DNA of 64,000 nucleotides. It comes from Escherichia coli. GTDB lineage: Bacteria > Pseudomonadota > Gammaproteobacteria > Enterobacterales > Enterobacteriaceae. Within the stretch, counting starts at the first letter, position 1, and every line of letters starts with the position of its first letter. A program made the translations under genes and the position numbers. The notes beneath the pieces are model-generated. The model did not search any database and was not told the DNA's origin. It was given only the letters and a program-made list of their open reading frames with translations. This document shows positions 29,810 through 57,082 of this stretch, in pieces. Location of the stretch: assembly GCF_022846255.1 (NCBI RefSeq), contig NZ_AP025682.1. One strand, 5' to 3'.

Positions 29810-31456
29810 ATGTCAAACAAACCCTTTATCTACCAGGCACCTTTCCCGATGGGGAAAGACAATACCGAATACTATCTACTCACTTCCGATTACGTTAGCG
29901 TTGCCGACTTCGACGGCGAAACCATCCTGAAAGTGGAACCAGAAGCCCTGACCCTGCTGGCGCAGCAAGCCTTTCACGATGCTTCTTTCATGCTCCGCCC
30001 GGCACACCAGAAACAGGTTGCGGCTATTCTTCACGATCCAGAAGCCAGCGAAAACGACAAGTACGTGGCGCTGCAATTCTTAAGAAACTCCGAAATCGCC
30101 GCCAAAGGCGTGCTGCCGACCTGCCAGGATACCGGCACCGCGATCATCGTCGGTAAAAAAGGTCAGCGCGTGTGGACCGGTGGCGGTGATGAAGAAGCAC
30201 TGTCGAAAGGTGTCTATAACACCTATATCGAAGATAACCTGCGCTATTCACAGAACGCGCCGCTGGACATGTATAAAGAGGTCAACACCGGCACGAACCT
30301 GCCTGCGCAAATCGACCTGTATGCGGTAGATGGCGATGAGTACAAATTCCTCTGTGTCGCTAAAGGCGGCGGCTCTGCCAACAAAACGTATCTCTACCAG
30401 GAAACCAAAGCCCTGCTGACGCCCGGCAAACTGAAAAACTTCCTCGTCGAGAAAATGCGTACCCTCGGTACTGCGGCCTGCCCGCCGTACCATATCGCGT
30501 TTGTGATTGGCGGTACGTCTGCGGAAACCAACCTGAAAACCGTCAAGTTAGCAAGCGCTCACTATTACGATGAACTGCCGACGGAAGGGAACGAACATGG
30601 TCAGGCGTTCCGCGATATCCAGCTGGAACAGGAACTGCTGGAAGAGGCCCAGAAACTCGGTCTTGGCGCGCAGTTTGGCGGTAAATACTTCGCGCACGAC
30701 ATCCGCGTTATCCGTCTGCCACGTCACGGCGCATCCTGCCCGGTAGGCATGGGCGTTTCCTGCTCCGCAGACCGTAATATCAAAGCGAAAATTAACCGCG
30801 AAGGTATCTGGATCGAAAAACTGGAACACAATCCAGGCCAGTACATTCCAGAAGAACTGCGTCAGGCAGGTGAAGGCGAAGCAGTGAAAGTCGACCTTAA
30901 CCGCCCGATGAAAGAGATCCTTGCCCAGCTTTCGCAATACCCGGTATCCACCCGCTTGTCGCTCACCGGCACCATTATCGTGGGTCGCGATATTGCACAC
31001 GCCAAGCTGAAAGAGCTGATTGACGCCGGTAAAGAACTGCCGCAGTACATCAAAGATCACCCGATCTACTACGCGGGTCCGGCGAAAACGCCTGCCGGTT
31101 ATCCATCAGGTTCACTTGGCCCAACCACCGCAGGTCGTATGGACTCCTACGTGGATCTGCTGCAATCCCACGGCGGCAGCATGATCATGCTGGCGAAAGG
31201 TAATCGCAGTCAGCAGGTTACCGACGCGTGCCATAAACACGGCGGCTTCTACCTCGGTAGCATCGGCGGTCCGGCGGCGGTACTGGCGCAGCAGAGCATC
31301 AAGCATCTGGAATGCGTCGCTTATCCGGAGCTGGGTATGGAAGCTATCTGGAAAATCGAAGTAGAAGATTTCCCGGCGTTTATCCTGGTCGATGACAAAG
31401 GTAACGACTTCTTCCAGCAGATCGTCAACAAACAGTGCGCGAACTGCACTAAGTAA
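29810..31456 (+). CDS. fumB: Class I fumarate hydratase (anaerobic)
   Basis: 548 aa, Fe-S fumarase family. Confidence 0.95.
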
Positions 31457-31578
31457 CCTCTTCGGCCCAGCGCCTGGCAGCATGCTGCCAGGTGATCCCC
31501 CTGGGCCACCTCTTTTGCGATTGTAATTTCACGCTTACTGGTCAATAGTCAGTATTTTCCCTGACTTGCGAACTCACC

Positions 31579-32229
31579 ATGACCCGCACACTCAAGCCGT
31601 TAATTCTTAACACCGGCGCACTGGCGCTAACGTTAATCCTGATTTATACCGGCATTTCGGCCCATGACAAACTCACCTGGCTGATGGAAGTGACACCGGT
31701 GATTATTGTCGTGCCGCTACTGCTTGCCACCGCTAAACGTTATCCGTTAACGCCGCTGCTTTATACGCTCATTTTCTTTCACGCCATCATCCTGATGGTC
31801 GGCGGGCAATACACCTACGCGAAAGTCCCCGTTGGTTTTGAGGTGCAGGAATGGCTGGGGTTGAGCCGTAATCCGTATGACAAACTGGGGCATTTTTTCC
31901 AGGGGCTGGTGCCTGCACTGGTGGCACGAGAGATCCTCGTGCGCGGGATGTACGTTCGCGGGCGTAAAATGGTGGCGTTTCTGGTCTGTTGTGTCGCGCT
32001 GGCGATAAGCGCGATGTATGAGTTAATCGAGTGGTGGGCAGCGCTGGCAATGGGCCAGGGCGCAGATGATTTTCTCGGTACTCAAGGCGACCCGTGGGAT
32101 ACGCAATCCGATATGTTCTGCGCACTACTGGGCGCATTAACGACGGTGATATTCCTCGCCCGCTTTCATTGCCGCCAGCTACGGCGCTTTGGCTTAATCA
32201 CCAGAGCGCCGGAAGCGATTACCCCTTAA
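31579..32229 (+). CDS. yjdF: Inner membrane protein YjdF
   Basis: 216-aa multi-TM ORF; its stop overlaps the melA stop on the opposite strand (TTAA at 32226-32229). Confidence 0.85.
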   Translation: MTRTLKPLILNTGALALTLILIYTGISAHDKLTWLMEVTPVIIVVPLLLATAKRYPLTPLLYTLIFFHAIILMVGGQYTYAKVPVGFEVQEWLGLSRNPYDKLGHFFQGLVPALVAREILVRGMYVRGRKMVAFLVCCVALAISAMYELIEWWAALAMGQGADDFLGTQGDPWDTQSDMFCALLGALTTVIFLARFHCRQLRRFGLITRAPEAITP

Positions 32230-33581
32230 CGGTGCAACCAGCCTGGCAGCCAGTCGCCGTGGGCGGCAATCAGGTCGTCAACAAGAGCATATATTTCGTC
32301 AATGCCCAGCACGGCGGCAGTATGCGGGTCCATCATCGCGGCGTGGTAAACACGGTCGCGGTTTTCCGTAAGAATGGCTTCGGTCAGCAGCGTCTGTACG
32401 TTGATGTTGGTTTGCATCAGAGCGGCCAGATGCGAAGGTAGCGTACCGACTTTGGTCGGCTGAATGCCATTAGCATCAACCAGACAGGCTACTTCCACGC
32501 AACATCCTTGTGGCAGGTTATCAATCAATCCATCGTTACGGACGTTGCCGTAAATCACACTCGGCTCGCCAGTCCAGATAGCGTTCATGATTGTGCTGGC
32601 ATATTCCCGTGACGGTTTAATATCAATCCGGGAGGCGTTCTTATACTCCTCCAGCTCTTTATGCCAGTTCGCCAGCTGCTCGACGCAGCGTTTCGGGTAC
32701 TCATCCAGCGGTACTTTATAACGCTCAATCAAATCCTCACGACCTGGCTTAATAAACCACGGCGTGTACTCAGCAAAATGTTCTGACGATTCCGTGACGA
32801 AGTAGCCCAGCTTTTTGAACATTTCGTAGCGCACAATATTCTGGCAGCGAGTATTGCCATGAATATTCGGCTTCGGTGCCTGCCCTGCTTCATAAGCCGC
32901 CAGCAGTTCCGGGTAGAGATTCACGTAACTGCCGTCGGCGGTTTTGCGCTCCAGTTCCAGGTAAAACGCCATATGGTTGATACCTGCGCAACGGTAACGC
33001 AGCGTAGCCGGATCGATATTGAGGTCACGCGCCAGCTCTTCCGCCGTTCCCTGCACCGAATGGCACAGCCCTACCTGCTTGATATGCGGATAGCGGGCAT
33101 ACATCGCCCAGGTATTCATCGCCATTGGGTTAACGTAGTTGAGCATGGTGGCATCGGGGCAGACTTCCGTCATGTCCTCGCAAATTTGCCACAGGTGCGG
33201 AATGGTACGTAGCGCGCGCATAATACCGCCCGGCCCCAACGTATCGGCAATGGTTTGTTCCAGACCATGCCGCTTACAGACCTCGAAATCAGTCACCGTG
33301 CAAGGTTCATAACCGCCAATCTGAAATGCCACCACCACAAAATCAGCATCCTGTAAGGCTTCTTTCTGTTGGGTGTGGCAGGTGATTTTGCCGCTGGCCC
33401 CTGCTGAATCCATCAGCTTACGCACCACAATGTGCGACTCTTCCAGGCGGGTGGGATCAATGTCCATCAGGGCAATATGCGCCGTTTTCAGCGCCTCGCG
33501 ATGGAACACATCACCAAGAATATTTTTAACGAAAATCGTCGAACCAGCGCCGATAAATGTAATTTTAGGTGCAGACATCAT
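32226..33581 (-). CDS. melA: Alpha-galactosidase (GH4, NAD/Mn-dependent)
   Basis: 451 aa; GH4 N-terminal Rossmann motif KITFIGAGSTIF. Confidence 0.95.
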   Translation of the reverse strand: MMSAPKITFIGAGSTIFVKNILGDVFHREALKTAHIALMDIDPTRLEESHIVVRKLMDSAGASGKITCHTQQKEALQDADFVVVAFQIGGYEPCTVTDFEVCKRHGLEQTIADTLGPGGIMRALRTIPHLWQICEDMTEVCPDATMLNYVNPMAMNTWAMYARYPHIKQVGLCHSVQGTAEELARDLNIDPATLRYRCAGINHMAFYLELERKTADGSYVNLYPELLAAYEAGQAPKPNIHGNTRCQNIVRYEMFKKLGYFVTESSEHFAEYTPWFIKPGREDLIERYKVPLDEYPKRCVEQLANWHKELEEYKNASRIDIKPSREYASTIMNAIWTGEPSVIYGNVRNDGLIDNLPQGCCVEVACLVDANGIQPTKVGTLPSHLAALMQTNINVQTLLTEAILTENRDRVYHAAMMDPHTAAVLGIDEIYALVDDLIAAHGDWLPGWLHR

Positions 33582-33863
33582 GCAGATCTCCTGGCTTGCT
33601 TGAATGACTTCATCATGGCAGGCGATATCGCAGAAAACCTCCGGTTTCCCGGTTGAGCATTCCCAAAAACTCAGATCCTAAGTGGCACATCAATAGATCT
33701 GAGTTTATGGGAATAAATTACCTGAAAAGCTGAATAATCGACCCCAGTCTTCTCATCCGCTCTCCTCGCACCTCCAGGGAGAGAAATAAAACCGTGCGCC
33801 TGTTCGCAGTCATCCTCCCTCACTCCTGCCATAATTCTGATATTCCAGGAAAGAGAGTCATCC
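33582..33863. promoter_or_regulatory. Divergent melR / melA promoter region
   Basis: Intergenic region between divergently transcribed melA and melR; MelR and CRP sites expected from established knowledge, not individually resolved. Confidence 0.5.
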
Positions 33864-34772
33864 ATGAATACAGATACGTTTATGTGCAGCAGCGACGAAA
33901 AGCAGACCCGTAGCCCACTGTCGCTGTATTCAGAATACCAGCGGATGGAAATTGAGTTTCGCGCACCGCATATCATGCCCACCAGCCACTGGCATGGTCA
34001 GGTCGAAGTGAATGTGCCTTTCGATGGCGATGTGGAATACCTGATCAACAATGAAAAAGTGAATATCAATCAGGGTCATATCACGCTGTTCTGGGCCTGT
34101 ACACCGCACCAACTAACAGATACCGGAACCTGTCAGAGCATGGCGATTTTTAATCTGCCGATGCATCTGTTTCTCTCCTGGCCGCTGGATAAAGACCTGA
34201 TTAACCACGTTACTCACGGCATGGTGATCAAATCACTGGCGACACAGCAACTTAGCCCGTTTGAAGTGCGCCGCTGGCAGCAGGAATTAAACAGTCCGAA
34301 CGAGCAAATTCGCCAGCTCGCCATTGATGAAATTGGCCTGATGCTCAAGCGATTTAGCCTCTCTGGCTGGGAACCGATTCTGGTCAATAAAACCTCGCGC
34401 ACACACAAAAACAGCGTCTCGCGCCATGCGCAATTTTATGTCAGCCAGATGCTGGGCTTTATTGCCGAAAACTATGATCAGGCGCTGACCATCAACGATG
34501 TGGCTGAGCACGTCAAACTTAACGCCAACTATGCAATGGGGATATTCCAGCGGGTCATGCAATTGACGATGAAACAGTACATAACCGCGATGCGCATCAA
34601 CCACGTTCGCGCGTTACTGAGCGATACCGATAAAAGTATTCTCGATATTGCCCTGACGGCAGGCTTTCGTTCGAGTAGCCGTTTTTACAGCACGTTCGGC
34701 AAATATGTCGACATGTCGCCGCAACAATACCGCAAACTTAGCCAACAGCGCCGCCAGACGTTTCCCGGCTAA
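33864..34772 (+). CDS. melR: AraC-family melibiose operon activator
   Basis: 302 aa with a C-terminal AraC-type HTH. Confidence 0.95.
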   Translation: MNTDTFMCSSDEKQTRSPLSLYSEYQRMEIEFRAPHIMPTSHWHGQVEVNVPFDGDVEYLINNEKVNINQGHITLFWACTPHQLTDTGTCQSMAIFNLPMHLFLSWPLDKDLINHVTHGMVIKSLATQQLSPFEVRRWQQELNSPNEQIRQLAIDEIGLMLKRFSLSGWEPILVNKTSRTHKNSVSRHAQFYVSQMLGFIAENYDQALTINDVAEHVKLNANYAMGIFQRVMQLTMKQYITAMRINHVRALLSDTDKSILDIALTAGFRSSSRFYSTFGKYVDMSPQQYRKLSQQRRQTFPG

Positions 34773-49120: not shown

Positions 49121-49199
49121 TAAGCCGGATAAGGCGCTCGCGCCGCATCCGGCAACGATGCCGACAGCCTGATGCGACGCTGACCGCGTCTTATCAGGC
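49121..49199. repeat. REP (repetitive extragenic palindrome) elements
   Basis: gccggataaggcgctcgcgccgcatccggca and an inverted partner; canonical E. coli REP motifs. Confidence 0.7.
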
Positions 49200-51671: not shown

Positions 51672-51762
51672 TCGTAGGTCGGATAAGACGCCCGGCGTCG
51701 CATCCGACAATGTGCAGACGTTGATGCCGGATGCGGTGCAAGCACCTTATCCGGCCTACAGA
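51672..51762. repeat. REP elements between phnD and phnE
   Basis: aggtcggataagacgcccggcgtcgcatccgaca … gatgccggatgcggtgcaagcaccttatccggcctaca. Confidence 0.7.

Positions 51763-56992: not shown

Positions 56993-57082
<90 letters not shown>

Follow-up and report, generated by a model that had tools for sequence, protein, structure and literature searches.

A natural and probably very old deletion of melB joins yjdF to melA in the mel locus of Escherichia coli B2 strains and other Escherichia

In Escherichia coli K-12, the melibiose permease gene melB lies between melA and yjdF. In the stretch of DNA analysed here, 64,000 nucleotides (nt) of an E. coli genome (contig NZ_AP025682.1 of assembly GCF_022846255.1; hereafter the window), melA and yjdF adjoin each other and melB is missing. 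The junction is so clean that a first-pass annotation, made from the sequence alone, proposed either a scarless engineered deletion or a lineage-specific loss, and predicted a defect in melibiose transport. The locus thus raises the question of how melB was removed, how long ago, and at what cost to melibiose use. Our analysis makes it very probable that the window carries a natural deletion allele of the mel locus, old enough to precede E. coli, whose carriers retained melibiose use by means of another galactoside carrier.

The gene order in the list of open reading frames (ORFs) of the window, dcuB, fumB, yjdF, melA, melR and adiA, is that of K-12 minus melB (Table 1). The annotated MG1655 locus runs fumB-yjdF-melB-melA-melR-adiA, as stated in the first-pass annotation (melR, melA-melB, yjdF), with a YjdF of 209 amino acids (aa), a 138-nt yjdF-melB intergenic region that contains a repetitive extragenic palindromic (REP) element, and a 102-nt melA-melB spacer. 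Alignment of the region to MG1655 by BLAST placed the deletion endpoints at window positions 32202 and 32226. On the left, K-12 homology ends at 32202, in codon 208 of K-12 yjdF and 6 nt before the K-12 yjdF stop codon; on the right, it restarts at 32226 with the melA stop codon. The 1,668 nt that separate these points in K-12 are represented in the window by 23 nt (32203-32225), which we call the filler. MelA is complete at 451 aa and ends in ...HGDWLPGWLHR, and, as first described, its stop codon overlaps that of the convergent yjdF; the two stop codons have 2 nt in common inside the 4-nt TTAA. The same 651-nt yjdF with the same 4-nt overlap with melA stands in the RefSeq annotation of ATCC 11775 and of sequence type 648 (ST648). 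The window's YjdF, ending in ...FGLITRAPEAITP, is longer than the K-12 protein (216 versus 209 aa), and the suspicion that its C-terminus was altered was borne out: residues 1-208 match positions 1-208 of the 209 in family model NF007369 (467 bits against a cutoff of 353), while residues 209-216 fall outside the model.

Table 1. Features of the melB-less mel locus, in window coordinates
Feature	Coordinates	Strand	Evidence
yjdF, DUF2238 inner-membrane protein, 216-aa form	31579..32229	+	ORF; NCBIfam NF007369, E = 7e-141
melA, glycoside hydrolase family 4 (GH4) alpha-galactosidase, intact, 451 aa	32226..33581	-	ORF; NCBIfam NF011657, E = 8.5e-222
melR, AraC-family activator, intact, 302 aa	33864..34772	+	ORF; NCBIfam NF007693 (equivalog), E = 2e-190
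TTAA, overlap of the convergent yjdF and melA coding sequences	32226..32229	.	Sequence and ORFs
23-nt filler AGAGCGCCGGAAGCGATTACCCC between the two deletion breakpoints	32203..32225	.	BLAST breakpoints against MG1655
Junction-derived YjdF tail, codons 209-216 (RAPEAITP) and stop codon	32203..32229	+	Translation
New 11-bp hairpin across the junction, yjdF CGGCGCTTTGG paired with filler CCAGAGCGCCG	32182..32211	.	Folding
Divergent melA/melR control region	33582..33863	.	Alignment

That melB is absent between melA and yjdF was confirmed by tblastn with K-12 MelB, which gave no real match anywhere in the 64-kb window (best E = 0.37 over 13 aa); directly downstream of melA there is no gene for a GPH-family Na+/melibiose symporter, since melA adjoins yjdF. 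The candidate of a melB copy elsewhere in the window was rejected, as tblastn and a blastn search with the deleted K-12 segment returned just REP-like fragments and chance matches. Short matches of 83-89% to the K-12 yjdF-melB REP element lie at 56997-57034, 51720-51760 and 49125-49154, and are probably ordinary REP copies.

The junction proved to be common in nature. Among 5,426 complete E. coli genomes, a 201-nt junction probe was contiguous in 1,264, and a longer probe of 2.3 kb found the junction in 1,270, including CFT073, Nissle 1917, ABU 83972 and ATCC 25922; S88, the type strain ATCC 11775 and ST648 also carry it. Over the 201-nt query the window is 100% identical to ATCC 11775, in whose annotation yjdF and melA overlap and melB is likewise lacking. 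DNA of the K-12 melB segment was present in 4,137 of the 5,426 genomes. These 4,137, the 1,264 with the junction and 12 with an Escherichia albertii-type arrangement described below add up to 5,413, which is precisely how many genomes have yjdF, so that the three classes appear to be mutually exclusive and junction genomes to be without melB elsewhere. A melB located at another place in the genome, the finding by which the first-pass annotation would have had its reading overturned, was thus not encountered in comparable genomes.

Carriers of the junction come from humans, birds, marsupials and food. At the gene-content level the absence was already on record: Touchon et al. 2009 (PLoS Genet, PMC2617782) listed melB among the genes absent from all B2 strains, and Touchon et al. 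2020 (PMC7314097) found B2 negatively associated with melibiose degradation genes. The melB-less allele is the normal state of phylogroup B2, found in about a quarter of E. coli (B2 and relatives), and not a product of engineering. A scarless engineered knockout, or an assembly artefact, would account for the clean junction and for the two flanking ORFs having stayed open. It would leave unexplained that the junction recurs in 1,264 independent complete genomes of varied source and in four other Escherichia species or lineages, that no FRT, lox or other exogenous scar is present, and that the filler is native-like, common to those lineages and diverged along with them. We give that explanation a negligible probability, and the proposal of an engineered deletion is refuted.

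As to the source strain, the nearest genomes over 25 kb (window 20000-44999) were B2 strains (S88, ATCC 11775, ST95), the best of them only 98.9% identical; the markers used in phylotyping lie outside the window. This best identity indicates that the strain belongs to a lineage poorly represented among complete genomes. Around the junction (2.3 kb) the best match among complete E. coli genomes was 99.3%. The synonymous divergence (dS) of the window's melA was 0.036 to ST648 versus 0.082 to ATCC 11775, and this closeness to ST648 implies that the locus is a mosaic. Independent disruptions of the locus were also seen: in melB-positive genomes, ISEc35 splits melB (strain 3090) and an IS1A is annotated within the melB-segment match (Ec-RL2-1X), and an ISApl1 lies inside the melA match of SC516.

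The age of the allele became apparent from other species. A MelA-based scan of one genome per bacterial species recovered the same layout in three more Escherichia: E. whittamii (L003), a genome labelled 'E. coli' SCPM-O-B-8794 (L004), and Escherichia sp. E1V33 (L080). Their breakpoints, filler and tail are as in the window, to which they are only 91.6-93.1% identical over 11 kb. In addition, the 12 genomes mentioned above, which are labelled E. coli, have the yjdF-filler junction with only the final ~34 nt of melA behind it; a second deletion, of 2.5 kb (window 32260-34761), takes the rest of melA and nearly all of melR. An identical 216-aa YjdF and the same arrangement occur in CP034213.1 (L093), which is E. 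albertii NCTC 9362 (PMC10673567). On this evidence, E. albertii lost melB first, by the same event, and melA and melR later. The junction carriers outside E. coli (E. whittamii, L004, L080 and E. albertii) are 7-11% diverged from the window, with flanks diverged to match. In Citrobacter and Kluyvera the arrangement is yjdF-melB-melA-melR; since melB there lies between melA and yjdF, the junction is derived and the presence of melB at that position is the ancestral enterobacterial arrangement. A scar common to E. whittamii, two other Escherichia lineages and E. albertii means that the deletion predates the diversification of E. coli.

These observations bear directly on whether melB was lost recently and once, within the B2 lineage, as a narrow reading of lineage-specific loss would have it. 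Most of the junction genomes named here are classical B2 strains, and melB has been listed as absent in B2, both of which such a loss would predict. Identical breakpoints, filler and tail in lineages 7-11% diverged, and in ST648, which lies outside B2 yet carries the junction, run counter to it, and the matching divergence of the flanks of the other carriers speaks against recent export of the allele from B2. We therefore think a recent B2 loss very improbable. The first-pass annotation was right that the loss is natural and characteristic of B2, and too narrow in confining it to one lineage, given that it predates E. coli and that ST648 has it. The MelA scan returned no representative of E. 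fergusonii, E. marmotae or E. ruysiae, the last of which has been published as melibiose-negative. In the literature on cryptic clades and E. albertii we found nothing on the junction or on its occurrence outside E. coli.

The 12 E. coli-labelled genomes with the second deletion, which include ML35, D1, 19KM2326N, 14EC007, 14EC017, 14EC047 and 2013C-4991, carry a segment of more than 20 kb, from dcuS to proP, that is only 88-89% identical to the window (in ML35, NZ_CP025747.1, 4479605-4504155, L090; also L088). Over 6.65 kb the ML35 copy matches E. albertii NCTC 9362 at 99.9% identity, and a test region elsewhere in the ML35 chromosome has matches of at least 99% identity in 3,212 E. coli genomes. 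The segment looks like a recent introgression from E. albertii, and it leaves the 12 strains without melA, melB and melR. E1V33, about 7% diverged from the window overall, differs from K-12 by 0.4-1.2% in several 250-nt fumB windows (window 30310-31560), which suggests a recent exchange with E. coli.

We then considered where the filler came from. Every melB-positive genus sampled has a conserved GC hairpin after melA, followed by the melB ribosome-binding region. On the melA strand the filler reads GGGGTAATCGCTTCCGGCGCTCT, and the loop and 3' arm of the K-12 hairpin read GGGGGATTTATTCCGGCGCACACCTCT; the 9-mer TTCCGGCGC is common to the filler and the 3' arm, and is the filler's best match on either strand of the deleted 1.67-kb K-12 segment (P about 0.008 against shuffles). 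The filler thus probably derives, on this sequence match, from the loop and 3' arm of the ancestral melA-melB spacer hairpin. The earlier statement that no trace of melB or of the spacer was left holds for melB and is probably slightly wrong for the spacer, of which this 9-mer would be a remnant. The filler is also found in loci L002, L003, L004, L080 and L089, and in a more diverged form in E. albertii (L093). Translated, it gives YjdF the tail RAPEAITP where K-12 has a single Gly; across lineages the tail reads RAPEAITP, RAPEATTP, RAPEAITS or RAPEALNL.

The filler also pairs with the end of yjdF. The arms of the resulting hairpin (32182-32192 with 32201-32211) lie about 15 nt downstream of the melA stop codon on the melA strand, and on the minus strand the fold has a predicted energy of -42.5 kcal/mol (z = -3.05), with none of 200 shuffles as stable. 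There is no U-tract or T-run after this hairpin and no terminator-like site downstream of melA; the sole terminator-like site near the junction is weak, on the plus strand and inside yjdF (32170-32186). The convergent yjdF/melA pair thus does not have a GC-rich hairpin with a U-tract past each stop codon, as intrinsic terminators would. In E. whittamii, L004 and E. albertii the central pair of the hairpin is broken, so that there is no evidence of structural selection on it; covariation support was rejected for the same reason, as the pair is simply broken elsewhere.

We infer the following history. A single illegitimate-recombination event would have taken out melB together with the yjdF-melB REP region and the greater part of the melA-melB spacer (1,668 nt of the K-12 sequence), and joined yjdF codon 208 to a spacer remnant of ~23 nt abutting the melA stop codon. 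yjdF would then have read through the remnant, acquiring the tail RAPEAITP and a TAA that overlaps the melA stop codon on the other strand. The allele would have been inherited by descent in E. whittamii, two other Escherichia lineages, E. albertii, E. coli B2 and ST648. MelA and MelR would have stayed functional and under selection, with melibiose entering by another galactoside carrier, most likely LacY.

Several points weigh against this history. The test for melB absence in the source strain covers the 64-kb window, and its genome could hold a second melB elsewhere. Some doubt attaches to the origin of the filler, since it also matches the REP element downstream of yjdF, though more weakly (P about 0.03). 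If the filler does come from the spacer, about 24 nt more next to the melA stop codon were also lost, and the event may comprise two steps. The common junction could in part reflect old horizontal spread and not pure vertical descent; recombination between species does occur at this locus, as the E. albertii segment in 12 E. coli shows, and melB itself has been exchanged. As for the carrier, dependence on LacY has been shown for strain UTI89 only, and the lac operon lies outside the window.

The retained genes provide evidence on melibiose use. Among melB-less lineages, with dS up to 0.45, the ratio of nonsynonymous to synonymous divergence (dN/dS) was 0.011-0.029 for melA; for melR it was 0.016-0.047 between melB-less lineages at the species level. 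Such low values indicate that both genes have been kept by strong purifying selection since the deletion, and hence that MelA still receives substrate. The MelA and MelR proteins of the window are essentially identical to those of K-12 (100% after rounding). LacY has long been established as a transporter of melibiose. Strain DSM 30083T, which is ATCC 11775 and has the same junction, was positive for D-melibiose and alpha-methyl-galactoside in OmniLog and for melibiose in API 20E, and grows on M9-melibiose (PMC4334874). Growth of the B2 strain UTI89 on melibiose requires a functional lacY (bioRxiv 10.64898/2025.12.03.691977). LacY is thus most likely the general substitute carrier in melB-less strains. 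The deletion removes the dedicated Na+-coupled MelB route and not melibiose use, so the predicted transport defect applies to that route and finds no support as a growth phenotype. That E. albertii lost melA and melR would be understandable if its background lacked an effective LacY route. In other genera, loci from Raoultella, Klebsiella oxytoca and K. spallanzanii (L039-L044), as well as L065 and L079, have melR-melA with no MelB homologue within 5 kb downstream.

Between melA and melR, two conserved inverted 18-mers lie at 33660-33677 and 33696-33713. From their conservation and the published architecture of the melAB promoter, we take these to be probable MelR sites. In B2-type sequences alone (the window, ATCC 11775), the DNA between and beyond the two repeats (about 33680-33800) has diverged strongly. 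Divergence between B2-type sequences and K-12 reaches 14-15% in this intergenic region (14% over 33726-33975) as against 0.4-2.8% in adjacent coding DNA, and the B2-type region is even further from the cryptic lineages than from K-12. The stretch between the 18-mers, which is the place of the CRP site in K-12, is altered in B2-type sequences, and regulation of melA in B2 may accordingly be predicted from sequence to differ.

If the deletion is older than E. coli, the presence of melB in most E. coli genomes has itself to be explained. One account is that melB was already missing from the ancestor of Escherichia, and so from that of E. coli, and that B2 and ST648 keep that state. Phylogroups A, B1, D and E would later have regained melB by homologous recombination with a melB-positive relative, after which it spread; the textbook melAB operon of K-12 and of most other E. 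coli would thus carry a re-inserted melB that swept through these groups. We regard the chances of this account as evenly balanced. It agrees with a scar common to E. albertii and at least three other Escherichia lineages, and with the MelA scan, which gave no melA in representatives of the remaining Escherichia species. It agrees as well with the low diversity of melB. Identity to K-12 of at least 99% was found in 4,126 of 4,137 genomes for the melB segment, 2,926 of 5,399 for melA and 1,637 of 5,413 for yjdF. Mean dS among five melB-positive strains was 0.025 for melB, 0.035 for melR, 0.045 for melA and 0.067-0.069 for yjdF and fumB; the ratio of polymorphism to divergence (from Citrobacter) was lowest for melB, at 0.028 versus 0.07-0.10 for fumB, yjdF and melA. 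Between K-12 and MOD1-EC7003 the difference is 0.49% for melB and 0% for the spacer, compared with 3.3-4.0% for fumB, yjdF and melA (Fisher P = 1.4e-12). On the yjdF side, K-12 and B2 diverge more and more toward the indel, from 1.6% up to 9.1% (last 143 nt of yjdF).

Other observations do not sit well with a regain. No donor was found, K-12 MelB being just 84-87% identical to MelB of Citrobacter, Salmonella and Kluyvera; on the melA side of the indel divergence is not raised (1.2%); the ratio for melR is also low (0.044); the comparison among melB-positive genomes rests on five strains; and site patterns near the junction are mostly derived changes specific to B2, with no clear foreign tract in K-12. 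A competing account, which we hold to be possible and somewhat doubtful, is that the E. coli ancestor had melB, and that the deletion allele either originated in a different Escherichia lineage, passed between species in the distant past and reached the ancestor of B2 and F by recombination, or is one of two alleles of a very old polymorphism. Foreign Escherichia DNA at exactly this locus has been demonstrated here by the E. albertii segment, over 20 kb long, that ML35 carries along with 11 other genomes. Moreover, the 3' end of B2 yjdF is 8-9% from each of K-12, MOD1 and E1V33, which is what DNA of an unsampled lineage would show, and the B2 melA-melR intergenic region is likewise aberrant. 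An import would nevertheless require several ancient transfers, or a polymorphism held over a dS of ~0.4-0.5; B2 melA itself is typical of E. coli, 1.2-2.8% from K-12; and the low diversity of melB would be left unexplained.

Three approaches to this choice were set aside. Gene trees of yjdF, melA, melR and fumB are mosaic and place melB-positive and melB-less E. coli in one cluster within the melB-less cryptic lineages; polarising the indel by these trees was rejected, since with such weak support and such mosaic sequences the event could not be dated. A scan of site patterns for a stretch that would place B2 with the cryptic lineages, apart from K-12, gave no clean block; most fixed differences are derived and specific to B2, and the patterns mainly reflect a long B2 branch. 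Sliding-window divergence, in which the gradient is confined to the yjdF side, favours neither regain nor import. In E. coli at large yjdF is unusually polymorphic, with 403 genomes only 90-95% identical to K-12; between O157:H7 and K-12, identity is 96.5% in yjdF and 99.2% in neighbouring melB.

Comparison with known systems places the locus among natural losses of mel genes. The melB-less locus of B2 strains (CFT073, Nissle 1917, ATCC 25922, ATCC 11775) has the same junction, 216-aa YjdF, 4-nt overlap, and intact melA and melR, while no complete genome in the set comes closer than ~1% divergence to the window as a whole; the published B2 description is a gene-content list, without the junction or its occurrence outside E. 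coli. The melR/melAB regulon of K-12 and Salmonella resembles the window in its divergent melR and melA and in the conserved, probable operator repeats; it differs in that melB, the spacer hairpin and the REP region are present there and absent in the window, and in that the B2-type promoter is heavily diverged. The mel-null locus of E. albertii has the same yjdF-filler-melA junction and, unlike the window, the second 2.5-kb deletion across melA and melR, in keeping with which E. albertii is melibiose-negative (PMC9830988). In Shiga toxin-producing and enteropathogenic E. coli (STEC/EPEC) O80:H2 the mel deletion is also natural and is used as a phenotypic marker, but there the whole mel operon is gone, a 70-bp insert ('70mel') is present and melibiose is not fermented (PMC11945584), whereas the window has lost melB alone, an allele with which the type strain still uses melibiose. 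The melB losses in Citrobacter (the C. youngae group; Citrobacter sp. MGH106 and Res13) resemble the window in keeping melA and melR beside yjdF; they have other breakpoints, an intergenic region of ~60-70 nt with a REP element or terminator-like hairpin, and a normal YjdF end. Five Citrobacter species representatives (L011, L019, L025, L026, L067) show melR-melA followed by yjdF without melB, with at least two types of junction, each of which retains a REP or terminator-like hairpin. These independent losses imply that loss of melB with retention of melA is recurrent in the Enterobacteriaceae. The exact anatomy of the junction, its occurrence across species and the likely secondary status of the K-12-type melB go beyond the literature that we found; the locus is not a new kind of system.

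For the biology of E. coli and its relatives, these results mean that the absence of melB in B2 is a known difference in gene content and should not be read as engineering, and that melB-less strains should not be scored as melibiose-negative in metabolic models or phenotype predictions, since the type strain grows, apparently by LacY and MelA. As a compact and unambiguous marker, the junction links B2, ST648 and several other Escherichia species, and it orders the events in E. albertii, with loss of melB followed by that of melA and melR. The E. albertii segment of ML35 demonstrates, in addition, that species exchange DNA at this locus. Should melB prove to have been re-acquired, a classic model operon would illustrate how homologous recombination can restore a lost gene.

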